A DNA stretch of 64,000 nucleotides, taken from assembly GCF_016026235.1 (NCBI RefSeq), contig NZ_CP065613.1. One strand, written 5' to 3'. Made by a program: the position numbers and the translations under genes. This stretch comes from Escherichia coli. Lineage in GTDB: Bacteria; Pseudomonadota; Gammaproteobacteria; Enterobacterales; Enterobacteriaceae. Under the pieces are notes generated by a model. The model was given only the letters and a program-made list of their open reading frames with translations. It did no database searches and was not told where the DNA came from. Position 1 is the first letter of the stretch, and the number at the start of each line of letters is the position of its first letter. Positions 1 to 64,000 of the stretch are shown here, piece after piece.

Positions 1-881
1 AATAAACCATGGTGATTTCCCGGCAGTACGAGCTTTAGCCGTCACCGATGGTCTGGTTGCTCTTTCCTTCGAGCGTTTAAATCAACGACCTTTAGGCTTA
101 CTTTTATAAAGATAAAAATGCCCTTCATGTTGTGCATTTTTATCTCGACCCAGCAGGCCTTCACCTAAATAAATTGCTGTCGTTGATGCTTTTGTGCCTG
201 AGTCCGACACCTTTTCCCAGCCATTACCAACATTGTAATAATGATTGCCCAGTACCCGGCAAATATAGGTCCAGCCACGGGAGCGGAGCTGTTGGAACCA
301 TCGCCCCTGAAAACCGGCATCTGTAATAACAATGACATCAGTCCCGGGGGAAAAGCACTCAGCAAGCGATTCCAGAAAACGCTCATGTACATCTGCATTC
401 GCTGTCTGTGATGATGGAACGACACAACTCATCAACGGTAAAGAACGCCCGTCACATGCCAGGCTTGCCCGCAAAAGCTGAAAACGAGAGGCATGATAAG
501 CACTCCAGTCAATGAGTATCACAACACGAGACATTCCCCGCGTAATCTTTTGGGTAATTCGCTGAAAAATGGTGGAAACCTCATTTTGCAAATGTCGATT
601 CCCCAACAGTCGATCCACCCGCTTTATTTTGTTTTTAACTGATGCCGTACCGGTTAAATGACGCCCGATACTGGTAAGTGTGAGGGAAGCGCCATTTATT
701 ACAGCATTAGTTGCGTCAATCAGTGATTTTTGACGGTAAAGATGCAAAGGGGCCAGTATGTTGTTAAGGAAATTTTGGCATAATGAACGTGCAGGCATAG
801 TGGTGATCTCCTTGAAATTGTTAGCACAATCAATTAGATCACATCTCACTATGCCTGTCTTGTTTTCTGGGGATTCCTCAG
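1..881 (-). mobile_element. IS10-like (IS4-family) insertion sequence, copy 1, partial (runs off the left edge); outside end CTGAGGAATCCCC at 869-881
   Basis: Encoded protein has IS10-type motifs (KRVDRLLGNRHL, ILIDWS, VITDAGF); terminal sequence resembles the IS10 outside end; bases 7544-8303 are an inverted copy of the same element. Confidence 0.8.
82..798 (-). CDS. IS10-like transposase, 238 codons ending at an in-frame TGA (82-84); the same frame continues transposase-like beyond it
   Basis: ORF track 82..1125 from internal Met (MPARSLCQNF...); identical over 225 aa to the copy at 7627-8303; resemblance to IS10 Tnp is from memory. Confidence 0.75.
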   Translation of the reverse strand: MPARSLCQNFLNNILAPLHLYRQKSLIDATNAVINGASLTLTSIGRHLTGTASVKNKIKRVDRLLGNRHLQNEVSTIFQRITQKITRGMSRVVILIDWSAYHASRFQLLRASLACDGRSLPLMSCVVPSSQTANADVHERFLESLAECFSPGTDVIVITDAGFQGRWFQQLRSRGWTYICRVLGNHYYNVGNGWEKVSDSGTKASTTAIYLGEGLLGRDKNAQHEGHFYLYKSKPKGR

Positions 882-2027
882 GGAAATATCCTGCATTAAC
901 GCAGGCCACGCCCGATACCAGCCAGGGCGTTGCAAAAGCGCCGGAACATGCTGATAACGCTGTAGAATATCCCACAGCAGGCTGCGCTCGACGTTGTGAT
1001 GATAAAGCGCAAACAGATTTTGCGGCTCGCGGTGCTGGCAGGCGCTTATCAGCGTTTGTGCCGCCGCCTGCGCGCCAGTCAGCGCCATATCCATGCCGCG
1101 CACGGAAATTCCGGTATTGACGCAACTGCGCAACGCATCGCCCACCAGCAGCCAGCCGTTACCGGCGTATTGCACCGGCATACTGTGCAAGCCACCTTCT
1201 GGCACCAGATGCGCACCATACTCCAGTGATTCCGTGTTTTTGATAAGCGGGCGCACTGCCGGATGCGCTTTAAAGCGAGTCAGCAGCTCGCTTGCCGGAA
1301 CACGACTTTGCGTAAGGGAAGAGAGCGGGCAAACAATCCCTAACGAGAGCGTTTGTTGATTAGTATAAAGAAATGCGCCGCTGGGTAAGTCATCACAGAT
1401 CCTGCCGCTGAACAGCAACGCTGCGCCTTCGTTATTCTCCAGATGAAAACGTTCTTCAATAGCGGATGTTTCCAGCGACAGCACTTCTTTGATCCCCAAC
1501 GCCATCGCTTCGCCAGCAGGACGAGTCACTAACCCGTGACGTTCAGCCAGGACGCTGTTGGCACCTTCTGCCAGCACCACATAACGGGCGCGGAGAATAT
1601 CGTCACCACAAATGACACCACACACTCTGCCGTTTTCTTCATACAGTGCATCCACCGTCGCACCAGGGATGCATTCGACACCTTCTTTTTCGGCTTCGGC
1701 AACCAGCCACGGATCGAACCGTGCACGTAATACACTCCAGGATTCACCGCCGGGCTGTAAGCTGGAAAACGTCGTTGCGCCATCCGGCGTTAACAGGGAA
1801 AGGCTTTCGTGAGTGATGCGTCGTTCAAGAGGCGCGGTCAGATGAAACTGAGGGAGGAGTTCCGCGAGTGCATGGGTATATAACCGCCCGCCGGAAAGAT
1901 TTTTGCTGCCGGGGATTTCAGCGCGTTCCAGTAACAAAACGGATAAACCCGCTCGCGCGCAGCGTAACGCGCAAGCGGTGCCTGCAATACCGGCACCAAT
2001 AATAATAATGTCGCAGTCGTCTTCCAT
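882..2027 (-). pseudogene. ygcN: ygcN (FixC-like FAD-dependent oxidoreductase), 3' end truncated by the IS insertion at 881
   Basis: N-terminal FAD motif DIIIIGAGIAG; ORF runs into IS sequence about 40 codons short of the ~423 aa I recall for K-12 YgcN; start codon (2027 vs 2057) uncertain. Confidence 0.7.
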
Positions 2028-2104
2028 GTCATGCCCCAGATATCCAGAACACAACACCCTAACATAGCGTTACTTAAGGGAAATTGACCGCCGACACACT
2101 CTTA

Positions 2105-2470
2105 TCATTCGCCGCGATAGATACAACCAGCGGTGCAGGTTTCTTTTACCATCACCGCACTTAACAGCGGCACAACGGGTTTAACCTGATCCCAAATCCA
2201 TTTTGCTAAAACTTCGCTGGTCGGGTTTTCCAGGCCTGGAATATCATTGAGATAATGGTGATCGAGGCGCTCATAAGTTGGCTTAAACGCTGCTTTCAGT
2301 TCAGCGAAATCGATAATCCAGCCCGTATGCGGATCGACTTCCCCGGTAATTTCCAGTCGCACCATAAAGGAATGCCCGTGCAGGCGACCACATTTATGCC
2401 CTTCCGGGACGTGTGGTAAGCGGTGAGCGGCTTCGAAGGTGAAATCTTTAAATAACGTGGTGGACATCAT
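2105..2470 (-). CDS. queD: 6-carboxy-5,6,7,8-tetrahydropterin synthase QueD
   Basis: 121-aa product [35 protein letters not shown]...; divergent from cysJ as in E. coli. Confidence 0.9.
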
Positions 2471-2785
2471 AATTTCTCTACAGGACGATAAAACCGCCGT
2501 AGAGTACCGGAAAGGCTGTTTTTTCGCATTATCTAAAACGACTTTGTTGCGCAAAATCGCTGATTTATCTTAATGATTGGCTAAATTCATTTGTTTTTCA
2601 TTAGGTTGGTTAATCTATTTTGTTGTTAAAGACTATTGCTAAAACAGGTTAGTCGATTTGGTTATTAGTTATCGCTATCCCGTCTTTAATCCACACCGTT
2701 CACCCCGTTAACCTTACCTTCTCTTCTGTTTTATGGGCGCTGACAGGGCGCAGAAACAGCTTTGCTTACTGGAACATAACGACGC

Positions 2786-4585
2786 ATGACGACACAGGTC
2801 CCACCTTCCGCGTTGCTTCCGTTGAACCCGGAGCAACTGGCACGCCTTCAGGCGGCCACGACCGATTTAACTCCCACCCAGCTTGCCTGGGTTTCTGGCT
2901 ATTTCTGGGGCGTGCTCAATCAGCAGCCTGCTGCGCTTGCAGCAACGCCAGCGCCAGCCGCAGAAATGCCGGGTATAACTATTATCTCCGCCTCGCAAAC
3001 CGGCAATGCGCGCCGGGTTGCTGAAGCATTACGTGATGATTTATTAGCGGCAAAACTGAACGTTAAGCTGGTGAACGCGGGCGACTATAAATTCAAACAA
3101 ATCGCCAGCGAAAAACTGCTTATCGTGGTGACGTCAACGCAAGGAGAAGGGGAACCGCCGGAAGAAGCCGTCGCGCTGCATAAGTTCCTGTTCTCCAAAA
3201 AAGCGCCGAAGCTGCAAAACACCGCATTTGCCGTGTTTAGCCTCGGCGATAGCTCTTATGAATTTTTCTGCCAGTCCGGGAAAGATTTTGACAGCAAGCT
3301 GGCGGAACTGGGCGGTGAACGCCTGCTCGACCGTGTCGATGCCGACGTTGAATACCAGACCGCTGCCAGCGAGTGGCGCGCTCGCGTGGTTGATGCGCTT
3401 AAATCGCGTGCGCCTGTCGCGGCACCTTCGCAATCCGTCGCTACTGGCGCGGTAAATGAAATCCACACCAGCCCGTACAGCAAAGACTCGCCGCTGGTGG
3501 CGAGCCTCTCTGTTAACCAGAAAATTACCGGGCGTAACTCTGAAAAAGACGTTCGCCATATCGAAATTGACTTAGGTGACTCGGGCCTGCGTTACCAGCC
3601 GGGTGACGCGCTGGGCGTCTGGTATCAGAACGATCCGGCACTGGTGAAAGAACTTGTCGAACTGCTGTGGCTGAAAGGCGATGAACCTGTCACCGTCGAG
3701 GGCAAAACGTTGCCTCTGAACGAAGCGCTACAGTGGCACTTCGAACTGACCGTCAACACCGCCAATATTGTTGAGAACTATGCCACGCTTACCCGCAGCG
3801 AAACGCTGTTGCCGCTGGTGGGCGATAAAGCGAAGTTACAGCATTACGCCGCGACTACGCCGATTGTCGATATGGTGCGCTTCTCTCCGGCGCAACTGGA
3901 CGCCGAAGCGCTGATTAATCTGCTGCGCCCGCTGACGCCGCGTCTCTATTCCATCGCCTCCTCGCAGGCGGAAGTCGAGAACGAAGTACACGTCACCGTT
4001 GGTGTGGTGCGTTACGACGTGGAAGGCCGCGCCCGTGCCGGTGGTGCCTCCAGCTTCCTCGCGGACCGCGTGGAAGAAGAGGGCGAAGTTCGCGTATTTA
4101 TCGAACATAACGATAACTTCCGCCTGCCCGCTAACCCGGAAACCCCGGTGATTATGATTGGCCCAGGCACCGGCATCGCGCCGTTCCGCGCCTTTATGCA
4201 GCAGCGCGCCGCTGACGAAGCGCCGGGTAAAAACTGGCTGTTCTTTGGCAACCCGCATTTTACGGAAGATTTCCTCTACCAGGTGGAGTGGCAGCGCTAC
4301 GTCAAAGAGGGCGTGCTGACACGTATCGATCTCGCCTGGTCGCGCGATCAAAAAGAAAAAGTTTACGTACAAGACAAACTGCGCGAACAGGGCGCGGAGC
4401 TGTGGCGCTGGATCAATGACGGTGCCCACATTTATGTCTGCGGCGACGCTAATCGCATGGCGAAAGACGTTGAGCAGGCACTTCTGGAAGTGATTGCCGA
4501 ATTTGGTGGCATGGACACCGAAGCGGCGGATGAATTTTTAAGTGAGCTGCGCGTAGAGCGCCGTTATCAGCGAGATGTCTACTAA
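2786..4585 (+). CDS. cysJ: Sulfite reductase [NADPH] flavoprotein alpha subunit
   Basis: 599-aa ORF, flavodoxin plus FAD/NADPH reductase domains, first gene of cysJIH. Confidence 0.95.
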
Positions 4586-6297
4586 TGAGCGAAAAACATC
4601 CAGGGCCTTTAGTGGTCGAAGGAAAACTGACAGACGCCGAGCGCATGAAGCTTGAAAGCAACTACCTGCGCGGCACCATTGCGGAAGATTTAAACGACGG
4701 TCTGACCGGCGGCTTTAAGGGCGACAACTTCCTGCTGATCCGCTTCCACGGCATGTATCAGCAGGATGACCGCGACATCCGCGCCGAACGTGCTGAACAG
4801 AAGCTGGAGCCGCGCCACGCGATGCTGTTGCGCTGCCGTCTGCCGGGTGGGGTGATTACCACTAAACAGTGGCAGGCGATCGACAAATTTGCCGGTGAAA
4901 ACACCATCTATGGCAGCATTCGCCTGACCAACCGCCAGACGTTTCAGTTCCACGGCATTCTGAAAAAGAACGTCAAACCGGTGCACCAGATGCTGCACTC
5001 GGTCGGTCTTGATGCGCTGGCGACCGCTAACGACATGAACCGTAACGTACTCTGCACCTCGAACCCTTACGAGTCGCAGCTACACGCGGAAGCGTATGAA
5101 TGGGCGAAGAAAATCTCTGAACATCTGCTGCCGCGTACCCGCGCGTATGCGGAGATCTGGCTCGATCAGGAAAAAGTCGCCACCACCGATGAAGAACCGA
5201 TCCTCGGCCAGACCTACCTGCCGCGTAAATTCAAAACCACGGTAGTGATCCCGCCACAGAACGATATCGATCTGCACGCCAACGACATGAACTTCGTGGC
5301 AATCGCCGAAAACGGCAAGCTGGTGGGCTTTAACCTGCTGGTGGGCGGTGGGCTTTCCATCGAACACGGCAACAAGAAAACCTACGCCCGCACCGCGAGT
5401 GAGTTTGGCTATCTGCCGCTGGAGCATACGCTGGCAGTGGCGGAAGCCGTCGTGACAACTCAGCGTGACTGGGGTAACCGAACCGATCGTAAAAATGCCA
5501 AAACCAAATACACGCTGGAGCGCGTGGGGGTTGAGACGTTTAAAGCGGAAGTGGAGCGTCGCGCGGGGATCAAATTCGAGCCGATTCGCCCGTATGAGTT
5601 TACCGGACGCGGAGATCGTATTGGCTGGGTTAAGGGCATTGATGATAACTGGCACCTGACGCTGTTTATCGAAAATGGTCGCATCCTTGATTATCCGGGG
5701 CGTCCGCTGAAAACCGGCCTGCTGGAGATCGCGAAGATCCACAAAGGCGATTTCCGCATTACGGCGAACCAGAATCTGATCATCGCCGGTGTGCCGGAAA
5801 GCGAGAAAGCGAAGATCGAGAAGATCGCTAAAGAGAGCGGGTTAATGAATGCCGTCACGCCGCAGCGTGAAAACTCAATGGCCTGCGTGTCATTCCCGAC
5901 TTGCCCGCTGGCGATGGCGGAAGCGGAGCGTTTCCTGCCGTCTTTTATCGACAACATCGATAATTTAATGGCGAAACATGGTGTCAGCGATGAGCATATC
6001 GTGATGCGTGTAACAGGCTGCCCGAACGGTTGTGGTCGCGCGATGCTGGCGGAAGTGGGCCTGGTGGGTAAAGCGCCGGGTCGCTACAACCTGCATCTTG
6101 GCGGCAACCGTATTGGGACACGTATCCCACGGATGTATAAAGAAAACATCACCGAGCCGGAAATCCTGGCGTCGCTTGATGAACTGATAGGGCGCTGGGC
6201 GAAAGAGCGCGAAGCGGGTGAAGGCTTCGGCGACTTTACGGTGCGTGCGGGCATCATTCGCCCGGTGCTCGATCCGGCGCGCGATTTGTGGGATTAA
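4585..6297 (+). CDS. cysI: Sulfite reductase [NADPH] hemoprotein beta subunit
   Basis: 570-aa ORF, start overlaps cysJ stop (ATGA). Confidence 0.95.
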
Positions 6298-6313
6298 CCA
6301 TCAGCCCGGTCTT

Positions 6314-6350
6314 GTAGGCCTGATAAGACGCGTGAGCGTCGCATCAGGCA
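6314..6350. repeat. REP-like palindromic unit in the cysI-cysH spacer
   Basis: GTAGGCCTGATAAGACGCG...GCGTCGCATCAGGCA inverted repeat. Confidence 0.6.
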
Positions 6351-6370
6351 AGGCAAACAGTGAGGAATCT

Positions 6371-7105
6371 ATGTCCAAACTCGATCTAAACGCCCTGAAC
6401 GAACTGCCGAAGGTAGATCGCATTCTGGCGCTGGCGGAAACTAACGCCCAACTGGAAAAACTGGACGCTGAAGGCCGCGTAGCTTGGGCGCTGGATAATC
6501 TGCCCGGTGAATATGTACTTTCTTCCAGCTTTGGCATTCAGGCGGCGGTGAGCCTGCATCTGGTGAATCAAATTCGCCCGGATATTCCGGTGATCCTCAC
6601 CGATACCGGTTACTTGTTCCCGGAAACCTACCGCTTTATTGACGAGTTAACGGACAAACTCAAGCTCAACCTGAAAGTGTACCGTGCTACCGAAAGCGCA
6701 GCCTGGCAGGAAGCACGCTACGGAAAACTGTGGGAACAGGGCGTTGAAGGCATTGAAAAGTACAATGACATCAACAAAGTCGAACCGATGAACCGGGCGC
6801 TGAAAGAACTTAACGCGCAAACGTGGTTTGCTGGCCTGCGCCGTGAACAATCCGGCAGCCGCGCCAATTTACCGGTGCTGGCAATTCAGCGTGGCGTATT
6901 TAAAGTGCTGCCGATTATCGACTGGGATAACCGAACGATATATCAGTATCTGCAAAAGCATGGCCTGAAATATCACCCATTATGGGACGAAGGATATTTA
7001 TCGGTGGGCGATACCCATACAACCCGTAAATGGGAACCCGGCATGGCGGAAGAAGAAACGCGTTTCTTTGGCTTAAAAAGGGAATGTGGGTTACACGAAG
7101 GGTAA
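6371..7105 (+). CDS. cysH: Phosphoadenosine phosphosulfate (PAPS) reductase
   Basis: 244-aa product [31 protein letters not shown]...; the ORF track extends upstream, start chosen at MSKLD. Confidence 0.93.
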
Positions 7106-7122
7106 ATATTGCCGGATAAATT

Positions 7123-7160
7123 AAACGCCTCTGTCAGAAATGATGGGGGCGTTTTTATTT
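7123..7160 (+). terminator. Putative rho-independent terminator of cysJIH
   Basis: AAACGCCTC...GGGGGCGTTT stem followed by TTTTATTTT immediately after the cysH stop. Confidence 0.45.
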
Positions 7161-7368
7161 TGCGAGCAGCATTCCTGATTTTAAACGTGAACGCCGCTGG
7201 AAGAATTATCAGGTATAGAATGGCGTCGGGTGCTTGAGGCTGTCTGGCGTTAAGCATTCGCGAGGTTCCAGATGGACAAAAGCCCCAGGCGATATTTCTA
7301 TCAACCTGAGGCTCGCGTTCGAACGTAGCAATTCGAATGTTAGTCTCTTCTTTGCAGGGAGGCAAGAC

Positions 7369-7521
7369 ATGCTGACAAAATATGCCCTTGTGGCAATCAT
7401 AGTGCTGTGTTTTACAGTACTGGGATTCACGCTGATGGTAGGCGACTCGTTGTGTGAGTTGAGTATCAGAGAACGTGGTATGGAGTTTAAGGCTGTTCTC
7501 GCTTACGAATCGAAGAAGTAG
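7369..7521 (+). CDS. hokX: Hok/Gef-family type I toxin (50 aa) with an in-frame upstream Mok-like extension back to 7234; position matches the hokX/sokX locus next to cysH
   Basis: [50 protein letters not shown] carries the Hok motifs SLCE..IR and AYES; SD GGGAGG 7-14 nt upstream; gene name by position, from memory. Confidence 0.7.
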
Positions 7522-7543
7522 CCACCACGCGGGGGTAAAACCC

Positions 7544-8303
7544 CTGAGGAATCCCCAGAAAACAAGACAGGCATAGTGAGATGTGATCTAATTGATTGTG
7601 CTAACAATTTCAAGGAGATCACCACTATGCCTGCACGTTCATTATGCCAAAATTTCCTTAACAATATACTGGCCCCTTTGCATCTTTACCGTCAAAAATC
7701 ACTGATTGACGCAACTAATGCTGTAATAAATGGCGCTTCCCTCACACTTACCAGTATCGGGCGTCATTTAACCGGTACGGCATCAGTTAAAAACAAAATA
7801 AAGCGGGTGGATCGACTGTTGGGGAATCGACATTTGCAAAATGAGGTTTCCACCATTTTTCAGCGAATTACCCAAAAGATTACGCGGGGAATGTCTCGTG
7901 TTGTGATACTCATTGACTGGAGTGCTTATCATGCCTCTCGTTTTCAGCTTTTGCGGGCAAGCCTGGCATGTGACGGGCGTTCTTTACCGTTGATGAGTTG
8001 TGTCGTTCCATCATCACAGACAGCGAATGCAGATGTACATGAGCGTTTTCTGGAATCGCTTGCTGAGTGCTTTTCCCCCGGGACTGATGTCATTGTTATT
8101 ACAGATGCCGGTTTTCAGGGGCGATGGTTCCAACAGCTCCGCTCCCGTGGCTGGACCTATATTTGCCGGGTACTGGGCAATCATTATTACAATGTTGGTA
8201 ATGGCTGGGAAAAGGTGTCGGACTCAGGCACAAAAGCATCAACGACAGCAATTTATTTAGGTGAAGGCCTGCTGGGTCGAGATAAAAATGCACAACATGA
8301 AGG
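7544..8303 (+). mobile_element. IS10-like insertion sequence, copy 2, truncated (outside end plus 5' part of transposase), interrupted by IS4
   Basis: Begins CTGAGGAATCCCC 22 bp after the hok stop; inverted duplicate of 1-881; ends where the IS4 left end begins. Confidence 0.8.
7627..8303 (+). pseudogene. IS10-like transposase truncated after codon 225 by the IS4 insertion (the ORF reads 9 more codons into IS4)
   Basis: Identical to the 82-798 product up to ...DKNAQHEG, then diverges into the IS4 left end. Confidence 0.8.
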
Positions 8304-9729
8304 TAATGCCGATCAGTTAAGGATCAGTTGACCGATCCAGTGGCTGTGTAAGAATCCGGAAACGCTCACTTGTTTCCGGATTTTTTTATGCACATTGGAC
8401 AGGCTCTTGATCTGGTATCCCGTTACGATTCTCTGCGTAACCCACTGACTTCTCTGGGGGATTACCTCGACCCCGAACTCATCTCTCGTTGCCTTGCCGA
8501 ATCAGGTACTGTAACGCTACGCAAGCGCCGTCTTCCCCTCGAAATGATGGTCTGGTGTATTGTTGGCATGGCGCTTGAGCGTAAAGAACCTCTTCACCAG
8601 ATTGTGAATCGCCTGGACATCATGCTGCCGGGCAATCGCCCCTTCGTTGCCCCCAGTGCCGTTATTCAGGCCCGCCAGCGCCTGGGAAGTGAGGCTGTCC
8701 GCCGCGTGTTCACGAAAACAGCGCAGCTCTGGCATAACGCCACGCCGCATCCGCACTGGTGCGGCCTGACCCTGCTGGCCATCGATGGTGTGTTCTGGCG
8801 CACACCGGATACACCAGAGAACGATGCAGCCTTCCCCCGCCAGACACATGCCGGGAACCCGGCGCTCTACCCGCAGGTCAAAATGGTCTGCCAGATGGAA
8901 CTGACCAGCCATCTGCTGACGGCTGCAGCCTTCGGCACGATGAAGAACAGCGAAAATGAGCTTGCTGAGCAACTTATAGAACAAACCGGCGATAACACTC
9001 TGACGTTAATGGATAAAGGTTATTACTCACTGGGACTGTTAAATGCCTGGAGCCTGGCGGGAGAACACCGCCACTGGATGATACCTCTCAGAAAGGGAGC
9101 GCAATATGAAGAGCTCAGAAAACTGGGTAAAGGCGATCATCTGGTGAAGCTGAAAACCAGCCCGCAGGCACGAAAAAAGTGGCCGGGACTGGGAAATGAA
9201 GTGACAGCCCGCCTGCTGACCGTGACGCGCAAAGGAAAAGTCTGCCATCTGCTGACGTCGATGACGGACGCCATGCGCTTCCCCGGAGGAGAAATGGCGG
9301 ATCTGTACAGTCATCGCTGGGAAATCGAACTGGGATACAGGGAGATAAAACAGACGATGCAACTGAGCAGGCTGACGCTGAGAAGTAAAAAGCCGGAGCT
9401 TGTGGAGCAAGAGCTGTGGGGTGTCTTACTGGCTTATAATCTGGTGAGATATCAGATGATTAAAATGGCGGAACATCTGAAAGGTTACTGGCCGAATCAA
9501 CTGAGTTTCTCAGAATCATGCGGAATGGTGATGAGAATGCTGATGACATTGCAGGGCGCTTCACCGGGACGTATACCGGAGCTGATGCGCGATCTTGCAA
9601 GTATGGGACAACTTGTGAAATTACCGACGAGAAGGGGAAGGGCCTTCCCGAGAGTGGTAAAGGAGAGGCCCTGGAAATACCCCACAGCCCCGAAAAAGAG
9701 CCAGTCAGTTGCTTAACTGACTGGCATTA
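8304..9729 (+). mobile_element. IS4, complete 1426-bp element with imperfect terminal inverted repeats (TAATGCCGATCAGTTAAGG ... CTTAACTGACTGGCATTA)
   Basis: Length, terminal repeats and encoded InsG match IS4; flanks (ACAACATGAAGG left, CGACATTTGCCG right) are not a direct repeat. Confidence 0.9.
8388..9716 (+). CDS. insG: IS4 transposase InsG (442 aa)
   Basis: [36 protein letters not shown]... near-identical to E. coli IS4 transposase as remembered. Confidence 0.92.
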
Positions 9730-9764
9730 CGACATTTGCCGGGGTTATGAGCATAACGTAATGC

Positions 9765-31327: not shown

Positions 31328-31876
31328 ATGATTCGGCAACGTCGTCGTGCGTTAACGCCGGAACAACAGCAGGAAATGGGTCAACAAGCCGCTACCCGGA
31401 TGATGACTTATCCCCCGGTGGTGATGGCGCATACGGTCGCTGTATTCCTCTCTTTTGATGGTGAACTCGACACCCAGCCGCTAATAGAACAACTCTGGCG
31501 CGCCGGTAAGCGCGTATATCTTCCAGTTTTGCATCCCTTTAGTGCCGGTAATTTGCTGTTCCTGAATTACCATCCGCAAAGCGAACTGGTGATGAACAGG
31601 TTGAAGATCCATGAGCCAAAACTGGATGTGCGTGACGTGCTACCCCTTTCCCGATTAGACGTGCTGATCACACCGCTGGTCGCCTTTGATGAGTACGGTC
31701 AGCGCCTGGGAATGGGCGGTGGTTTTTATGATCGGACCTTACAAAACTGGCAGCACTATAAAACGCAACCGGTGGGTTATGCGCATGATTGTCAGTTGGT
31801 GGAAAAACTCCCCGTTGAAGAGTGGGATATCCCTCTTCCTGCGGTGGTTACACCGTCGAAAGTCTGGGAGTGGTAA
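31328..31876 (+). CDS. ygfA: 5-formyltetrahydrofolate cyclo-ligase (YgfA/Fau), co-transcribed with ssrS
   Basis: 182 aa from MIRQRRRALTPEQQQEMGQQ...; an alternative start at 31274 gives 200 aa. Confidence 0.88.
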   Translation: MIRQRRRALTPEQQQEMGQQAATRMMTYPPVVMAHTVAVFLSFDGELDTQPLIEQLWRAGKRVYLPVLHPFSAGNLLFLNYHPQSELVMNRLKIHEPKLDVRDVLPLSRLDVLITPLVAFDEYGQRLGMGGGFYDRTLQNWQHYKTQPVGYAHDCQLVEKLPVEEWDIPLPAVVTPSKVWEW

Positions 31877-31937
31877 GGGCGATACACCTGCATCGCGCTG
31901 ATTGACATCGTTGATTCTTTAACCTAATTTAGTGAGT

Positions 31938-32082
31938 AAGGGTAAGGGAGGATTGCTCCTCCCCTGTGACTGACTGTTAATAAGCTGGGAAACTTATGAG
32001 TAACAGTACAATCAGTATGATGGCAAGTCGCATCATAACCCTTCTCCTTCAAGCCCTCGCTTCGGTGAGGGCTTTACCGTTA
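31938..32082 (+). ncRNA. sibC: Sib antisense RNA (type I antitoxin), copy 1; ends approximate
   Basis: Promoter TTGACA-17bp-TAATTT at 31902-31930; fully overlaps the ibs ORF on the opposite strand; hairpin AAGCCCTCGCTTCGGTGAGGGCTTT at 32051-32075. Confidence 0.5.
31977..32036 (-). CDS. ibsC: Ibs-family type I toxin, 19 aa (MMRLAIILIVLLLISFPAY)
   Basis: Reverse complement of 31977-32036 translates to an Ibs peptide; SD GGAGAAGGG upstream on the minus strand. Confidence 0.75.
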   Translation of the reverse strand: MMRLAIILIVLLLISFPAY

Positions 32083-32329
32083 CAGCCCCATGCTGCCCAG
32101 TTATCGTAAGCTCTCTTTAAATAACCGCAACGCATTGATCTACCTTTAAATCTTTTCTTCGAGCGCGCTCGAAAAACCCCATGCAAAACAGAGATAATTT
32201 TTGGGAAAAAGGATCTATTACGGCAGTAAACGTGGGCGATGAAGTGGCTATCAAAAAGTTCGGTTCAGGGCGATGCACCCCGCATCGCCCTGATTGACAT
32301 CGTTGATTCTTTGACCTAATTTAGTGAGT

Positions 32330-32474
32330 AAGGGTAAGGGAGGATGACTCCTCCCCTGAGACTGACTGTTAATAAGCTCCGAAACTTATCAGTAACAGTA
32401 CAATCAGTATGATGACAAGTCGCATCATAACCCTTCTCCTTTAAGCCCTCGCTTCGGTGAGGGCTTTACCGTTA
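32330..32474 (+). ncRNA. Sib antisense RNA, copy 2; ends approximate
   Basis: Same promoter and hairpin as copy 1, shifted 392 bp. Confidence 0.5.
32369..32428 (-). CDS. Ibs-family type I toxin, 19 aa (MMRLVIILIVLLLISFGAY), second copy
   Basis: Reverse complement of 32369-32428; differs from copy 1 at two residues. Confidence 0.75.
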   Translation of the reverse strand: MMRLVIILIVLLLISFGAY

Positions 32475-32610
32475 CAGCCCCATGCTGTCCCGCCATCGTA
32501 AATCCCCATTAAATAAACACAACGCATTGATCTGAGTTTGATTTATTTTCTGGAGCAGACTCGCAAAGTAGAATGCGCAACGCGGCAACGGTGTGGAGAA
32601 GGGATAAAAA

Positions 32611-38428: not shown

Positions 38429-39416
38429 TGAAGCCACGCTGGCAGAAAGTATTCGCCGCTTACGTCAGGGTGAGCGTGCCACACTCGCCCAGGCCATGAC
38501 GCTGGTGGAAAGCCGTCACCCGCGTCATCAGGCACTAAGTACGCAGCTGCTTGATGCCATTATGCCGTACTGCGGTAACACCCTGCGACTGGGCGTTACC
38601 GGCACCCCCGGCGCGGGGAAAAGTACCTTTCTTGAGGCCTTTGGCATGTTGTTGATTCGAGAGGGATTAAAGGTCGCGGTTATTGCGGTCAATCCCAGCA
38701 GCCCGGTCACTGGCGGTAGCATTCTCGGGGATAAAACCCGCATGAATGACCTGGCGCGTGCCGAAGCGGCGTTTATTCGCCCGGTACCATCCTCCGGTCA
38801 TCTGGGCGGTGCCAGTCAGCGAGCGCGGGAATTAATGCTGTTATGCGAAGCAGCGGGTTATGACGTAGTGATTGTCGAAACGGTTGGCGTCGGGCAGTCG
38901 GAAACAGAAGTCGCCCGCATGGTGGACTGTTTTATCTCGTTGCAAATTGCCGGTGGCGGCGATGATCTGCAGGGCATTAAAAAAGGGCTGATGGAAGTGG
39001 CTGATCTGATCGTTATCAACAAAGACGATGGCGATAACCATACCAATGTCGCCATTGCCCGGCATATGTACGAGAGTGCCCTGCATATTCTGCGACGTAA
39101 ATACGACGAATGGCAGCCACGGGTTCTGACTTGTAGCGCACTGGAAAAACGTGGAATCGATGAGATCTGGCACGCCATCATCGACTTCAAAACCGCGCTA
39201 ACTGCCAGTGGTCGTTTACAACAAGTGCGGCAACAACAATCGGTGGAATGGCTGCGTAAGCAGACCGAAGAAGAAGTACTGAATCACCTGTTCGCGAATG
39301 AAGATTTCGATCGCTATTACCGCCAGACGCTTTTAGCGGTCAAAAACAATACGCTCTCACCGCGCACCGGCCTGCGGCAGCTCAGTGAATTTATCCAGAC
39401 GCAATATTTTGATTAA
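38421..39416 (+). CDS. argK: GTPase ArgK/MeaB (methylmalonyl-CoA mutase chaperone)
   Basis: 331 aa, P-loop GTPGAGKST. Confidence 0.92.
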
Positions 39417-58212: not shown

Positions 58213-60204
58213 TTACAGCAGTTCTTTTGCTTTCGCAACAACGTTGTCAACGGTGAAGCCGAACTCTTCAAAGAGTTGCTCTGCCGGAGCAGATTCACCG
58301 AAGGTGGTCATACCGACGATAGCACCGTTCAGGCCAACATACTTGTACCAGTAGTCAGCAATACCCGCTTCCACCGCAACGCGTGCAGTAACCGCTTTCG
58401 GCAGGACAGACTCACGGTAAGCCGCGTCCTGCTTGTCGAATGCGTCGGTAGACGGCATGGAAACCACGCGCGCTTTCACGCCTTCGGCAGTCAGTTTTTC
58501 GTATGCAGCGACAGCCAGTTCAACTTCAGAACCAGTAGCGATGAAGATCAGTTCCGGCTGGCCGGCACAGTCTTTCAGCACATAACCACCGCGCGCGATG
58601 TTTGCCAGTTGCTCTTCAGTTCGTTCCTGCTGCGCCAGGTTCTGACGGGAGAGGATCAGTGCGGTCGGGCCGTCCTGACGCTCAACACCGTATTTCCACG
58701 CGACCGCGGATTCAACCTGGTCACACGGACGCCATGTAGACATGTTCGGGGTTACGCGCAGAGAAGCGACCTGCTCTACCGGCTGGTGAGTCGGGCCATC
58801 TTCGCCCAGACCGATGGAGTCGTGGGTGTAAACCATCACCTGACGCTGTTTCATCAGCGCAGCCATACGTACGGCGTTACGTGCGTATTCCACGAACATC
58901 AGGAAGGTGGAGGTGTACGGCAGGAAACCACCGTGCAGGGAGATACCGTTAGCAATCGCGGTCATACCGAACTCGCGAACACCGTAGTGGATGTAGTTAC
59001 CCGCAGCATCTTCGTTGATTGCTTTAGAACCAGACCACAGGGTCAGGTTAGACGGTGCCAGGTCAGCAGAACCGCCGAGGAATTCCGGCAACAGCGGACC
59101 GAACGCTTCGATAGCATTCTGCGACGCTTTACGGCTGGCGATTTTCGCCGGATTAGCCTGCAGTTTAGCGATGAACTCTTTCGCTTTAGCGTCGAAGTCA
59201 GACGGCATTTCGCCTTTCATACGGCGGGTAAATTCAGCGGCTTCCTGCGGATAAGCTTTCGCGTAAGCAGCGAATTTCACGTTCCATGCGGATTCTTTCG
59301 CCTGGCCTGCTTCTTTCGCATCCCACTGAGCATAGATTTCAGACGGGATTTCGAACGGTGCATATTTCCAGCCCAGCTGTTCGCGGGTCAGGGCAATTTC
59401 AGCGTCGCCCAGCGGCGCACCGTGGGAGTCGTGAGTACCGGCTTTGTTCGGGGAACCGAAACCGATGATGGTTTTGCACATCAGCAGGGACGGTTTGTCA
59501 GTCACTGCGCGCGCTTCTTCTACTGCGCGTTTGATGGATGCCGCGTCATGACCGTCGATGTCGCGAATAACGTGCCAACCGTAAGCTTCGAAACGCATTG
59601 CGGTGTCGTCGGTGAACCAGCCTTCAACGTGACCATCGATAGAGATACCGTTGTCATCGTAGAACGCAATCAATTTACCCAGCTTCAGCGTACCCGCCAG
59701 AGAGCAAACTTCGTGGGAGATGCCTTCCATCATGCAGCCGTCGCCCATGAAGGCATAGGTGTAGTGGTCGACAATGTCGTGGCCCAGACGGTTAAACTGC
59801 GCCGCCAGCGTTTTTTCTGCAATCGCCATACCGACTGCGTTGGCAATACCCTGACCCAGCGGACCGGTGGTGGTTTCCACACCAGCGGTGTAACCCACTT
59901 CCGGGTGACCCGGAGTTTTAGAGTGCAGCTGACGGAAGTTTTTCAGTTCTTCCATCGGCAGATCGTAACCGGTGAGGTGCAGCAGGCTGTAGATCAGCAT
60001 GGAGCCGTGGCCGTTGGACAGCACGAAGCGGTCACGGTCAGCCCAGGACGGATTCTGCGGGTTGTGTTTCAGGAAATCACGCCACAGGACTTCGGCAATG
60101 TCAGCCATACCCATAGGGGCACCCGGGTGACCGGATTTGGCTTTCTGTACTGCGTCCATGCTCAGCGCACGAATAGCATTGGCAAGCTCTTTACGTGAGG
60201 ACAT
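58213..60204 (-). CDS. tktA: Transketolase 1
   Basis: 663 aa from [32 protein letters not shown]... Confidence 0.95.
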
Positions 60205-60481
60205 TTTGACTCCAGATCGGATGATGAAGGGCACGCCCTTAACGACTTGACGACAGCGCGTTTTGGGCTACGCCGGAAAATTTGCCAACAATTTACCGCA
60301 AGCCGCGCGTCATGTACATGGAACATCCTTTTGCCGCTTCAGAAATCTCTGGATCATGCTCGCATGTTGCGCAATCTGCTCGCCCGTCCGCTGCGCTTTT
60401 CCTTATACTGAGACTGAGCGTCGATTCACCTGCAAACGGCGCATTTTTAGAATAATCCTGACCTTGTGCGGAAGAGAAAAC

Positions 60482-61240
60482 ATGAAAATTCGCGCCTTAT
60501 TGGTAGCAATGAGCGTGGCAACGGTACTGACTGGTTGCCAGAATATGGACTCCAACGGACTGCTCTCATCAGGAGCGGAAGCTTTTCAGGCTTACAGTTT
60601 GAGTGATGCGCAGGTGAAAGCCCTGAGCGATCAGGCATGTCAGGAGATGGACAGCAAGGCGACGATTGCGCCAGCCAATAGCGAATACGCTAAACGTCTG
60701 ACAACTATTGCCAATGCGCTAGGCAACAATATCAACGGTCAGCCGGTAAATTACAAAGTGTATATGGCGAAGGATGTGAACGCCTTTGCAATGGCTAACG
60801 GCTGTATCCGTGTCTATAGCGGGCTGATGGATATGATGACGGATAACGAAGTCGAAGCGGTGATCGGTCACGAAATGGGGCACGTGGCATTAGGCCATGT
60901 GAAAAAAGGAATGCAGGTGGCACTTGGTACAAATGCCGTGCGAGTAGCTGCGGCCTCTGCGGGCGGGATTGTCGGCAGTTTATCTCAATCACAACTCGGT
61001 GATCTGGGCGAGAAATTAGTTAATTCGCAATTCTCCCAGCGCCAGGAAGCAGAAGCCGATGATTATTCTTACGATCTTCTGCGCCAACGCGGCATCAGCC
61101 CGGCAGGTCTTGCCACCAGCTTTGAAAAACTGGCGAAACTGGAAGAAGGCCGCCAAAGCTCAATGTTTGACGACCATCCTGCATCCGCCGAACGCGCCCA
61201 GCATATTCGCGATCGCATGAGCGCGGATGGGGTTAAGTAA
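60482..61240 (+). CDS. loiP: Outer-membrane metalloprotease LoiP (YggG), M48 family
   Basis: 252 aa from MKIRALLVAMSVATVLTGCQ (lipobox); HEMGH zinc motif. Confidence 0.92.
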   Translation: MKIRALLVAMSVATVLTGCQNMDSNGLLSSGAEAFQAYSLSDAQVKALSDQACQEMDSKATIAPANSEYAKRLTTIANALGNNINGQPVNYKVYMAKDVNAFAMANGCIRVYSGLMDMMTDNEVEAVIGHEMGHVALGHVKKGMQVALGTNAVRVAAASAGGIVGSLSQSQLGDLGEKLVNSQFSQRQEAEADDYSYDLLRQRGISPAGLATSFEKLAKLEEGRQSSMFDDHPASAERAQHIRDRMSADGVK

Positions 61241-61295
61241 GTCAGACATACCGATCTACAACATAATTGTAGGTCGGTAACGCCTGAATCCCCGA

Positions 61296-62048
61296 TCAGA
61301 GTAGTGATTTCACTTTATTTAGCAAAACGGCTACATCATCCGGTCGGGTATATCCCGTATCAGGGTCTATAATCGAGCTGTAAACATGTGGCATAATGCG
61401 CGGCACCCCCGCCTCCAGACAAGTTTTCAGAATCACACTGAAGTTATCCAAATCAATCCCGCCAGTCGGCTCAATCAGCGTCATACCATTGCGCGCCGCC
61501 GTGGTCGCCAGCGCGTATAGCTCCGGAAGCGACCTCTCGCCGCCCATCGGAAAGAACTTCGCCGCGTGTGCGCCCATATCTAGCATCATTCGCACCGCCG
61601 TATCGCAGGAGACGCGGGCAGGCGTACCCTGGCTGCTGCTAACGCCGGTGGAAATCAGCACTTCGCCCGGCGTCCCCGTCGGGCTAACCAGCGCGTTGAC
61701 ATGGGTCTGCTCACCGCCCGTAGCCGCAAGCGCGCCTGCCGCGAAACCACAACCGGTAAAGGTCTGGTTAACGTGTGCTGGATGAATCTGCGCCGCAATC
61801 ATCGCAGCTTTGTAATACTGCGCCGGGTCACCCGCCCCCAGACCTACTGAAATGGACGGTATTTCCGCCATCCAACGTTTAACTTCCTGGATCCCCTCAT
61901 CCACCGAGGAGAACTGCGCGGAAAGCACGCCAATCACTGCGTGGCCTTCGGCGGCGTCAAAGATTTCACGGGCATTGGCGATATCTTTCGCCAGCACATT
62001 AATTGCCACGCGATTACGATAGAAATTAATCTTTTGCATGATCTGCAA
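61296..62048 (-). CDS. DgaF-like putative aldolase (KDPG-aldolase-type), last gene of a D-glucosaminate-like operon
   Basis: 250-aa ORF directly downstream of the SelA-like gene and PTS IID; family assignment from recollection of the Salmonella dga operon. Confidence 0.55.
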   Translation of the reverse strand: MQIMQKINFYRNRVAINVLAKDIANAREIFDAAEGHAVIGVLSAQFSSVDEGIQEVKRWMAEIPSISVGLGAGDPAQYYKAAMIAAQIHPAHVNQTFTGCGFAAGALAATGGEQTHVNALVSPTGTPGEVLISTGVSSSQGTPARVSCDTAVRMMLDMGAHAAKFFPMGGERSLPELYALATTAARNGMTLIEPTGGIDLDNFSVILKTCLEAGVPRIMPHVYSSIIDPDTGYTRPDDVAVLLNKVKSLL

Positions 62049-63134
62049 TCTCCTTCAGTCGCGCCACGATAAGTGCCATTTCCCCTTCCGCCTCCGTACG
62101 CGGATCAAGGCTAAAAACGCCCTGGTGGAGGTTATACCGCCGTGCATAAATCGCGATATCGCCACCACGCAGTTGCGCTTCGACGACGCGAGCGTCAACT
62201 CCCAATTCCTGCGCATTTACTCGAATACGAATACGCCAGATTGCACGCCCGGCTTCATCCTGCTCAATATCAGCCGTTAACCCGTGAATCGCAGAAATCG
62301 CTTCAACCACTGGCTGGAGCTGTTCCGCGGTGATGACTGCCTGCCCCTGGTGATAATTCTCCAGCGCGTAAACCAGCCCAACCATGTTCTCCTTGCCGAT
62401 TTTCATCGCCCTGGCAATGCCGTGATGCTGCGCTTTGCAGGCTGCAATCCAGATTTTTTACCAGTGATAAACCCGGAGGTCGGCGCGTTAAAGGCTTTTG
62501 CGCCGCTGTAGACCACCATATCCGCTCCGCTCACCACCCAGGCACGTAAATCCTCTTCGGCGGCGGCATCGACAATCAGCGGCAGGTTGTACATCTGCGC
62601 GACATGTGCGAAGTCCTCGATGTTCAACATTCCCTTCTGCACGCAGTGATGCGACTTCACATACAGCAGCGCGGCGGTCGCGTCGGTAATGGCACTCTCC
62701 AGCTGCCAGAGAGCCGCCAGGTTACTTGAACCCACCTCCACAACGCGCCCGCCACCTAAGCGGATCGCGCTGAGGATCGATGCACCGTAATCGACGTTAT
62801 GGCCGCGCAGCATCACCACTTCATTGGCCATGCCGGAGCTATCCGGCATGAGCGCCACCCGGGCCTTGTCGCCGCGTGTAATGGCGGCGGCGACAGCGAT
62901 GGCGATCCCTGCTGAGGCACAGGAGGTAACGTAGCTATCCTCCGCCCCGGTAAAGCGAGAGACCAGCTCGCCGGTTTTGTCCACCAGCTGGTCAATCTCC
63001 ACGAAAGAGGATGCCGCGCGCGCGGTGGCCTGCATCACCTCCGGCGCGACGCTGGAGACGCCGAGAATCGTCATCTTGCCGCAGGCGTTAATCACCTGTT
63101 TCAGTCCCAGTTGTTGATAGATATTCTGCGTCAT
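62026..63134 (-). pseudogene. DgaE-like SelA-family PLP enzyme (putative D-glucosaminate-6-phosphate ammonia-lyase), split by a -1 frameshift in a coding-strand A6 run (plus-strand T6 at 62449-62454)
   Basis: Two ORFs (62403..63134, 243 aa; 62026..62406, 126 aa) together equal a ~369-aa protein; the other frame reads through the junction as ...GKKIWIAACKAQHHGIARAMKIGKE... Confidence 0.7.
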
Positions 63135-63137
63135 GGC

Positions 63138-63995
63138 TTACAGCACTCCCAGCAGCGAGCAGACCACGCTCAACGCCACAATCGACAGCAGAATCGTGGT
63201 GTAACGCGGACCCTTTTTCACCAAATAGAAGTAGATGGCGAACACTGCCGCCAGCGGCAGCAGGCCGGGCGCGATGGAGTCCAGAATCTGCTGTACCACC
63301 ACTTCAGAGCCTTTCAGTGCGCTAATTTTTAAAGGTGAGGTTATCTTGACAAAGCTCGCGGATAGCGCGCCCATCATGATAAGCCCCAGTACGTTAGCGC
63401 CGTAGATAAGCTCCTTGATGCGCCCTCCCTGCAGCAGACTGATAATCGAATCGCGCCCCAGCGTATAGCCCTTGTGCACCATGCCGTAGCTGATTGCCAG
63501 CGTAATCGCCGGGTAGAGAATCAGCGGCAAAATACCGCCCATCGCGCTGCCATTGGCGGCGAACGGGATAAAAATAGCAATCAACAGCGGCATCACCGCC
63601 GCCCAGATGATGGAGTCGCCCATCCCGGCCAGCGGCCCCATCAGGCCGGTTTTAATCCCGGTGATAGAGGCATCGTTAATCGCCTCGCCGCGGGTCTTTT
63701 GCTCTTCCATGGCGATGGAGATCCCCTGGATCACCGCGCCAAACGTCTGCTCTGAGTTGAAGAAGTTCAGATGGCGTTTTAACGCCTCCACCTGCTCCTC
63801 CTTTTGCGGATAGAGCTTTTTGATAATCGGCGTCATCGAGGCGCAGAAAATCAGGCTCTGTAAACGCTCATAGGAGCTGGAAACTTCCGCGCCCAGCCAG
63901 TAGATAAACCACGCTTTGGTGATATCCGCTTTGGTCAGCGCCCCGGACTCCCGCGCGCGCTCAACCAGTTCATGCTGCATTACGTCGTCGCTCAT
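63138..63995 (-). CDS. PTS mannose/sorbose-family EIID component
   Basis: 285-aa polytopic membrane protein; IIC/IIB/IIA would lie beyond the right edge. Confidence 0.8.
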   Translation of the reverse strand: MSDDVMQHELVERARESGALTKADITKAWFIYWLGAEVSSSYERLQSLIFCASMTPIIKKLYPQKEEQVEALKRHLNFFNSEQTFGAVIQGISIAMEEQKTRGEAINDASITGIKTGLMGPLAGMGDSIIWAAVMPLLIAIFIPFAANGSAMGGILPLILYPAITLAISYGMVHKGYTLGRDSIISLLQGGRIKELIYGANVLGLIMMGALSASFVKITSPLKISALKGSEVVVQQILDSIAPGLLPLAAVFAIYFYLVKKGPRYTTILLSIVALSVVCSLLGVL

Positions 63996-64000
63996 TATGC

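Follow-up and report, generated by a model that had tools for sequence, protein, structure and literature searches.

A one-base frameshift in dgaE, very probably a recent and inherited pseudogene, in the D-glucosaminate operon of an Escherichia coli strain

The end of the analyzed window, a stretch of 64,000 nucleotides of an Escherichia coli contig (NZ_CP065613.1), is identified by its sequence as the last three genes of the known D-glucosaminate (dga) utilization operon, in which dgaE is split by the loss of a single base. The operon has been known already, and the split dgaE is to be regarded as an ordinary pseudogene within it; it is very probably genuine, of recent origin, and vertically inherited. 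Sequence comparison documents which genes these are, that dgaE is frameshifted, that the frameshift is inherited, and that it recurs in other lineages; the features are summarized in Table 1.

Table 1. Features at the end of the window and their coordinates (window numbering).
Feature	Position	Strand	Description
loiP	60482..61240	+	Metalloprotease, 252 aa; left flank of the dga island, conserved
Imperfect inverted repeat, 12-bp, ACCGATCTACAA / TTGTAGGTCGGT	61250..61279	none	Read from sequence
dgaF/dagF	61296..62039	-	KDPG (2-dehydro-3-deoxy-phosphogluconate) aldolase, 247 aa, intact
Split dgaE	62026..63134	-	369-aa protein once one A is restored
dgaE 3' ORF	62026..62406	-	126 codons; residues 244-369, C-terminal domain
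SNP giving V348E	62093	-	Plus-strand T, relatives A; private
ATGA overlap	62403..62406	-	TGA of the 243-codon ORF over ATG of the 126-codon ORF
dgaE 5' ORF	62403..63134	-	243 codons; DgaE residues 1-225 plus 18 out-of-frame residues
Frameshift site	62454..62459	none	T6 on the plus strand, A6 on the gene strand
dgaD, mannose-family PTS EIID	63138..63995	-	285 aa from ATG, intact
IIC gene (dgaC)	63995..64000	-	Last two codons and TAA stop; coordinates mapped from the IAI1 annotation and locus L013

The left flank, loiP, is annotated at the homologous place in IAI1, FDAARGOS_943, and K-12, and its start is the Met at codon 74 of the ORF beginning at 60263. Homology to K-12 ends precisely at the loiP stop codon. 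In K-12 (MG1655), loiP is directly followed by speB, an order which the first-pass annotation had given correctly, and the 7.6-kb dga island stands in place of the loiP-speB spacer of that strain. Among 5426 complete E. coli genomes, 562 (approximately 10%) carry the island between these two genes. As a separate observation, an IS-mediated rearrangement is also present in the window, and its nearest relative is IS-rich. The genes loiP and dgaF are convergent, and the inverted repeat lies in the 55-bp spacer between them without a T-run. A consensus scan of this spacer and of the inside of dgaE returned no canonical terminator or promoter, so the repeat is taken as only a possible hairpin that would end transcripts from both directions. 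The aldolase-like ORF spans 61296-62048(-) in the ORF list, and the dgaF sequence shows no differences from the IAI1 gene. For dgaD, the start in RefSeq is an ATA codon at 63998. The genes for IIC, IIB, and IIA, the sigma-54 promoter, and dgaR are all located past the window edge.

The assignment of the IID, SelA-like, and aldolase genes after loiP to the end of a dga operon had been proposed in the first-pass annotation, and family models bear it out. The intact E. coli DgaE allele (common or one-base-restored) reached 690.7 bits against NF047797.1, for which the cut-off is 600, and dgaF passed the DagF equivalog NF047796.1 with 350.6 bits (cut-off 300), with Pfam KDGP_aldolase recorded for dgaF in related loci. 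The dgaD product matched TIGR00828 EIID-AGA with E=2e-65, under the subfamily cut-offs, and Pfam EIID-AGA was recorded as well. The remaining components, which had been expected beyond the right edge, were present in related loci: IIA, IIB, and IIC (Pfam EIIA-man, PTSIIB_sorb, and EII-Sor) were found in L013, which has the identical haplotype, and in L008, and the DagR activator of 946 aa, outside the window but on the same haplotype, scored 1521 bits against NF047795.1 (cut-off 1400). A perfect sigma-54 promoter motif, TGGCAC-N5-TTGCT, is located approximately 40 nt upstream of IIA (TGGCACGTCCTTTGCT at L008:7387-7402). The order dagR-IIA-IIB-IIC-IID-dgaE-dagF is complete in IAI1, FDAARGOS_943, and L008-L017. 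Since no substrate-specific model exists for the PTS permease, its specificity is assigned from this context.

PMC9529869 and PMC4987338 describe the D-glucosaminate pathway of Salmonella and its regulation and refer the dgaR-dgaABCDEF PTS operon of Salmonella enterica to Miller et al. 2013. The E. coli locus resembles this operon in gene order and content (LevR-like sigma-54 activator, mannose-family EIIA/B/C/D, DgaE, DgaF), in the sigma-54 promoter upstream of IIA, and in that DagR, DgaE, and DagF pass the NCBI equivalogs. Once restored, DgaE is 86.7% identical to the crystallized Salmonella DGL (PDB 7lc0) over 369/369 aa without gaps, with H163 and the lysine of SGAKAF retained. The E. coli island differs in its placement between loiP and speB, where it takes the place of a 205-bp REP spacer, and its function is predicted. 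Salmonella DgaE has Arg-Lys-Thr where E. coli has Lys-Lys-Ile, the residues encoded by the A7 tract. In this window, however, dgaE is frameshifted: only residues 1-225 are encoded in frame, while the C-terminal 126 residues form a separate ORF that carries V348E.

With regards to the split itself, the ORF list agrees with the earlier description of 243- and 126-codon ORFs, and the proposal that one extra A restores a frame of about 369 aa held as well, as adding one A to the gene strand yields an unbroken DgaE of that length. Apart from V348E, it matches WP_000193113.1/P0031, the common protein of E. coli, exactly. The one factual slip of the first-pass annotation was the position of the homopolymer, given as 62449-62454 and thus 5 nt off; the TTTTTT at 62454-62459 is the sole run of at least six bases between the two dgaE ORFs. 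Alignment to E. coli IAI1 placed one gap within this run and showed no further difference nearby. The 5' ORF retains the SGAKAF motif with the presumed PLP lysine (K213). The ATG opening the 3' ORF corresponds to Met244 of intact DgaE, the end of this ORF overlaps the dgaF start by 14 nt, and its product is deposited as STM06050.1. V348E falls beyond the frameshift in the C-terminal part, at a position conserved in Salmonella DGL.

The two fragments match consecutive stretches of the DgaE equivalog NF047797.1 (model positions 1-230 and 242-366 of 367), and they are therefore halves of one gene. Their scores of 441 and 198.5 bits both lie under the cut-off, while the restored or common allele lies above it; the locus is therefore classified as a dgaE pseudogene and not as a functional member of the family. 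Two separate genes were ruled out, as 560/560 complete genomes have the in-frame 7-T tract and the Salmonella crystal protein is one 369-aa chain. Homologs arranged as two genuine genes were not seen, and the 7-T dgaE genes inspected were single ORFs of 1110 nt (IAI1, FDAARGOS_943) or 1146 nt (2013C-4081).

The frameshift is not confined to one assembly. A look-up in NCBI and Logan assemblies found the exact 243-aa product of the 6A allele on 56 public contigs. The 126-aa product with E348 that the window itself encodes was matched on 10 contigs, among them SRR8186592, SRR13615176, and GCA_000805835.1, and its allele (6A plus V348E) is present in at least 10 assemblies. The deposited proteins STM06049.1/STM06050.1 carry the window's allele, and over 11.6 kb the window and locus L013 are 100% identical. 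The sister haplotype L008 has 6A but keeps the ancestral V348, which nests V348E inside the 6A clade. The remaining operon genes are all intact in both L008 and L013. The nearest complete genome for comparison, FDAARGOS_943, has 7 T, and over 54 kb the dgaE site was the sole homopolymer indel that separated it from the window. Tract length may still vary within a culture.

The first-pass annotation had left three readings of the split gene, a real pseudogene, a slipped-strand switch, or a sequencing error. The pseudogene was upheld by the many assemblies, the nested V348E, and the absence of other homopolymer indels; the error was dismissed for this lineage, and the switch retained weak support from recurrent slippage, set against a tract in frame in 560/560 genomes. 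If the missing base were a homopolymer sequencing or assembly error, the strain would truly carry 7 A and an intact dgaE. Loss of one base in a homopolymer is the typical fault of assemblies from 454, PacBio, and ONT, the STM06049.1/STM06050.1 copy sits on a 4.56-Mb contig resembling a long-read assembly, and two other 6A assemblies, L011 and L012, are demonstrably indel-noisy. However, the same haplotype, private V348E SNP included, occurs in 10 contigs from separate samples or sources, 6A is common to a sister haplotype, the window has no second homopolymer indel over 54 kb against its nearest relative, and six 6A loci show no other private indel across 20.7 kb. On the 54-kb comparison and the look-up of the exact truncated products, sequencing error was rejected for the window's lineage, and we regard it as extremely unlikely. 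It is also highly unlikely that the split gene still functions, either by termination-reinitiation at the ATGA, with the 126-codon product joining the N-terminal fragment, or by rare transcriptional or translational slippage on A6 that gives enough full-length DgaE. The stop of the 5' ORF does overlap the ATG of the 3' ORF, where reinitiation is conceivable from the sequence, the 5' fragment retains the SGAKAF motif, and polymerase slippage at poly(A) tracts is known to rescue frameshifts in other bacteria. In the known cases, however, such rescue needs approximately nine or more A. The frameshift also removes residues 226-243 (IWIAACKAQHHGIARA), which E. coli and Salmonella share almost without change, and puts 18 unrelated residues in their place. 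Neither fragment reaches the family cut-off, and the C-terminal part seems to be under relaxed constraint, as V348E alters a conserved position.

Tract length was compared in related strains, as the first-pass annotation had proposed, and the tract is 7 T, never 6 T, in all 560 complete genomes that carry the site. The 6A allele was found at ten loci with at least five flank haplotypes and at least three island haplotypes. A single 6A origin by descent was rejected, given these backgrounds and the 7A twins of each, although one origin together with conversion of tracts shorter than 1.2 kb may be an alternative. For the clean 6A loci L009, L010, and L015, the 7A twins are essentially identical over 20.7 kb, and a +1 (8A) dgaE product exists on 6 contigs. 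With 6A on at least five chromosomal backgrounds, near-identical 7A twins, and 8A alleles, the dgaE tract is considered a recurrent but rare slippage site. This claim rests on the clean loci L008, L009, L010, L013, L015, and L017. Extra private homopolymer deletions were seen in L011 (DEC10C; one T-run) and L012 (5.4-Mb contig; three), and L016 has a +G in IIB. Since L011 and L012 are indel-noisy, some of the recurrence seen outside the window's lineage could be an artefact, which leaves that lineage itself unaffected. A second tract served as a control: -1 products of the dgaR T8 tract occur on 476 and 417 contigs, and these frameshifts are approximately ten times commoner than those of the dgaE tract. 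The dgaE tract is thus not special. It is unlikely that repeated inactivation of the island at its two longest coding homopolymers (the A7 of dgaE and the T8 of dgaR) reflects more than mutational noise, whether niche selection for losing D-glucosaminate uptake or catabolism (convergent pathoadaptive or cost-saving) or low-rate reversible switches of the pathway.

A related proposal, which we consider very unlikely, is that the A7 tract is a contingency locus, where slipped-strand switching of dgaE at appreciable frequency makes D-glucosaminate catabolism phase-variable, perhaps avoiding sugar-phosphate stress or expression cost. It would fit the independent 6A alleles on at least five backgrounds with their near-identical 7A twins, the 8A alleles, and the still more numerous off-alleles at dgaR T8, which varies in 18/560 complete genomes. 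Slipped-strand mispairing at a coding homopolymer with -1 and +1 alleles is indeed shared with phase-variable loci of the Neisseria, Haemophilus, and Campylobacter type. Established contingency loci, however, have tracts longer than seven bases and frequent length variation among close relatives, while the dgaE tract is only 7 nt and exactly 7 in 560/560 complete genomes, with the off state in 0/560. Off-alleles amount to approximately 56-96 contigs against at least 1000 for a single intact DgaE variant. DgaE is a cytoplasmic catabolic enzyme, and the off state is fixed across the window's clade with a further substitution accumulating, which points to decay and not to switching. The Arg-Lys-Thr of the Salmonella orthologue cannot form an A7 run, so the tract does not count as a conserved design feature. 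The pseudogene reading agrees better with homopolymer-slippage pseudogenes of the E. coli/Shigella type, in which a short mononucleotide run has likewise lost one base, the change is restricted to a lineage, and the operon is otherwise intact. The IS-mediated rearrangement and the IS-rich nearest relative resemble genome decay of this type, and nothing is distinctive here save that the same tract was mutated independently in several lineages.

In the intact system, DgaR, a LevR-like sigma-54 activator, would switch on dgaABCDEF. D-glucosaminate would be imported and phosphorylated by the mannose-family PTS permease DgaABCD, the PLP enzyme DgaE would convert D-glucosaminate-6-phosphate to KDPG and ammonia, and DgaF would split KDPG into pyruvate and glyceraldehyde-3-phosphate. 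In the window's lineage, the loss of one base from the A7 tract by slipped-strand mispairing, at codons K224-K225-I226, truncates DgaE after residue 225 and detaches its C-terminal domain, so that the pathway would be blocked at the committed step. V348E probably accumulated later in the dead part of the gene, with the rest of the operon still intact. The strain is hence predicted to be unable to grow with D-glucosaminate as its source of carbon and nitrogen. Accumulating D-glucosaminate-6-phosphate is possibly toxic, and dgaF expression may be reduced via polarity or lost translational coupling.

Apart from correct annotation, the finding is of little consequence. A single dgaE pseudogene should be recorded at the locus, which some deposited records (EHW25948.1, STM06049.1/STM06050.1) present as two ORFs named 'selenium transferase' or 'PLP enzyme'. 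Where the presence of genes decides the score for 'D-glucosaminate degradation' in a metabolic reconstruction, this strain should be predicted D-glucosaminate-negative. The recurrent frameshifts at A7 (dgaE) and T8 (dgaR) illustrate, in a small and clean case, that the longest homopolymers dominate the loss-of-function alleles in an accessory operon, a useful caveat for pan-genome and metabolic-model pipelines.

At the right end of the window, the gene of the PLP enzyme DgaE is split into two ORFs, and the evidence strongly favours a real dgaE pseudogene. The 243-codon ORF ends and the 126-codon ORF starts within an overlapping ATGA at 62403-62406, and the sole mononucleotide run of at least six bases between the two ORFs is TTTTTT at 62454-62459. 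One additional A on the gene strand yields a continuous protein of 369 aa. The first-pass annotation described the ORFs, the split and the restoration to about 369 aa accurately, but placed the run five bases off, at 62449-62454. For the IID gene (63993-63998), RefSeq/NCBI uses an ATA codon at 63998 as start (286 aa); the ATG at 63995, which overlaps the IIC stop (TAATG) and gives 285 aa, looks more plausible.

Features at the right end of the window
Feature	Coordinates	Strand	Basis or remark
tktA	58213-60234	minus	ORF listing and direct reading
loiP	60482-61240	plus	ORF listing and direct reading
Aldolase-like ORF (dgaF/dagF)	61296-62048	minus	RefSeq-equivalent start 62039, giving 247 aa
3' dgaE ORF, 126 aa	62026-62406	minus	ORF listing
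5' dgaE ORF, 243 aa	62403-63134	minus	ORF listing
IID ORF, 285 aa	63138-63995	minus	ORF listing

Against the NCBIfam DgaE equivalog NF047797.1 (cut-off 600 bits), the 243-aa product covered positions 1-230 of 367 with 441 bits and the 126-aa product positions 242-366 with 198.5 bits, both below the cut-off, while the common intact E. coli DgaE (P0031, WP_000193113.1) reached 690.7 bits. His163 and the lysine of SGAKAF are kept. The downstream gene clears the DagF (KDPG aldolase) equivalog with 350.6 bits (cut-off 300), and NCBIfam places the upstream gene generically, as a mannose-family EIID. RefSeq annotation of the comparison genome IAI1 and of FDAARGOS_943, the nearest complete genome, contains the whole island between speB and loiP (dagR, IIA, IIB, IIC, IID, dgaE, dagF), and ten public contigs share this order. 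In these contigs, the 946-aa activator carries Sigma54_activat and PRD domains and clears the DagR equivalog; a perfect sigma-54 promoter, TGGCACGTCCTTTGCT, lies approximately 40 nt upstream of IIA. The equivalogs and the island order confirm the dgaD-dgaE-dgaF assignment made at first pass, and the IIC, IIB and IIA genes and the sigma-54 activator expected beyond the right edge were found in both genomes and the ten contigs. The island matches the Salmonella dgaR-dgaABCDEF system, in which D-glucosaminate is taken up and phosphorylated by DgaABCD, DgaE (DGL) forms KDPG, and PTS phosphorylation controls DgaR, a LevR-like sigma-54 activator (PMC9529869; PMC4987338).

In K-12, loiP adjoins speB, as stated at first pass. 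The 7630-bp island stands exactly in place of the 205-bp REP-containing spacer of K-12, whose homology ends at the two stop codons flanking the island, and of 5426 complete genomes of E. coli, 562 have it.

A 71-nt query with seven T matched complete genomes at 100% in 560 of 560 cases, whereas the 70-nt query with six T matched the 560 genomes with none at 100%, the gap falling inside the T run; the suggested comparison of homopolymer length in related strains hence returned seven T throughout. FDAARGOS_943 is approximately 0.06% divergent from the window and collinear over 9730-64000, where the dgaE site is the sole single-base homopolymer indel and the remaining length differences, an IS1 and a deletion of ~93 bp, are both in FDAARGOS_943. 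The window is therefore no indel-noisy assembly. The exact 243-aa product occurs on 56 contigs (NCBI and Logan assemblies), and the window's 126-aa product with a private V348E (SNP at 62093) on ten contigs that stem from different samples, SRR8186592, SRR13615176 and GCA_000805835.1 among them. Locus L013 and the window are 100% identical across 11.6 kb, and L008, two SNPs apart, carries six A's with the ancestral V348. A substitution such as V348E nested in a six-A clade is the mark of an inherited pseudogene and not of random error. Of the explanations offered at first pass, a real pseudogene was borne out by the 56 contigs and the nested V348E, and a sequencing error is refuted for the window's lineage by the independent contigs, the nested V348E and the lack of any further homopolymer indel. 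A slip-strand switch holds no further than the trivial point that slippage recurs at the tract.

The ten retrieved six-A loci (L008-L017) represent at least five flank haplotypes, 60-270 SNPs apart per 20.7 kb, and three island haplotypes, distinguished by SNPs at a distance of 1.2-1.5 kb from the tract. Every haplotype tested has essentially identical counterparts with seven A's among the complete genomes, across the whole 20.7 kb (O26 strains for L011, 2015C-3121 for L012 and L015, L65 for L016, SFE8 and others for L009, MSHS 472 and others for L010). Zero other private indels were found in L008, L009, L010, L013, L015 and L017; the noisy assemblies were L011, with one additional T-run deletion, L012, with three additional deletions, and L016. 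In L016 (Logan SRR16777065), a +G frameshift at L016:8107 splits IIB into 98 and 82 aa, and two hits in one operon are consistent with progressive decay after the pathway was broken. The +1 (eight-A) dgaE product was found on six contigs.

As a control, we counted frameshift products of the T8 tract in dgaR (L009:4720-4727, outside the window), the only longer coding homopolymer of the island. Of the -1 product, the 87-aa form occurred on 476 contigs and the 73-aa form on 417; for the +1 product, the counts were 31 contigs and 1 contig. Among the 560 complete genomes, 18 vary in the surrounding 71-nt stretch (L009:4689-4759). A further early frameshift allele of dgaR (proteins P0049/P0064, ...VVKVRDVLFFFYIVTH) was carried by at least 1000 contigs and by 247. 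Many E. coli have the island regulator as a pseudogene, and the dgaE tract is less mutable than the dgaR T8. With regard to the counts for both tracts, homopolymer slippage alleles are therefore a general low-frequency trait of this accessory island, and it is improbable that recurrent inactivation of the island at its homopolymers is selected or switch-like. At the tract, Salmonella DgaE has Arg-Lys-Thr, whose sequence cannot encode an A7 run, in contrast to Lys-Lys-Ile in E. coli; the A7 tract is no conserved design element.

In 2013C-4081 (L023:986-2131), dgaE is annotated with 1146 nt, contains a 36-nt in-frame insertion and is named only "DgaE family" by PGAP; the O111:H8 strain 02-3334 shares the product name and a match length of 2797 nt. 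This insertion is a further independent alteration of dgaE.

Elsewhere, window 881-8303 matches ygcN-queD-cysJIH-hok and the start of an ISEc60 (IS4-like) element, and a truncated xanQ follows from 9730. Since both segments lie ~131 kb apart in FDAARGOS_943, each adjoining an ISEc60 copy, an IS-mediated deletion or inversion occurred in the window's strain; this rearrangement (881-9730) points to a lineage that is rich in IS elements and decaying. Many differences from FDAARGOS_943 are G-to-A in that genome at CCCGG-like contexts (CCCGG to CCCAG), a motif-biased mutation or error pattern of its assembly; at 61669, 62861 and 63945, IAI1 agrees with the window, so these changes are private to FDAARGOS_943. 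Two tandem ibs/sib type I toxin-antitoxin repeat copies (31876-32141 and 32267-32533, 91% identical) are annotated in FDAARGOS_943 as ibsC and Ibs family toxin. Both yggP (55673) and meaB (38718-38793) look intact in the window and are damaged in relatives: yggP has a +1 frameshift in IAI1 and the IS1 in FDAARGOS_943, which also carries the ~93-bp deletion in meaB.

The -1 deletion in dgaE cuts the protein off after residue 225: 18 unrelated residues take the place of the nearly invariant segment 226-243, and residues 244-369 are encoded by an ORF of their own. It is unlikely that the split enzyme is functional or that polymerase slippage on only six A's rescues it, given the loss of conserved residues and the relaxed constraint suggested by V348E. 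The dga system and the window's allele are both already in public databases, where the six-A allele is mis-annotated as two ORFs, and six-A dgaE is an ordinary feature. For the pseudogene carried here, the inactivation is recent, because the remaining operon genes are all intact in the window's haplotype. With its start overlapping the dgaE end, dgaF may be expressed too weakly unless translation reinitiates at the ATGA overlap. The strain would not convert D-glucosaminate-6-phosphate and is not expected to grow on D-glucosaminate, and the phosphorylated substrate could build up, since both the permease and the regulator remain intact.
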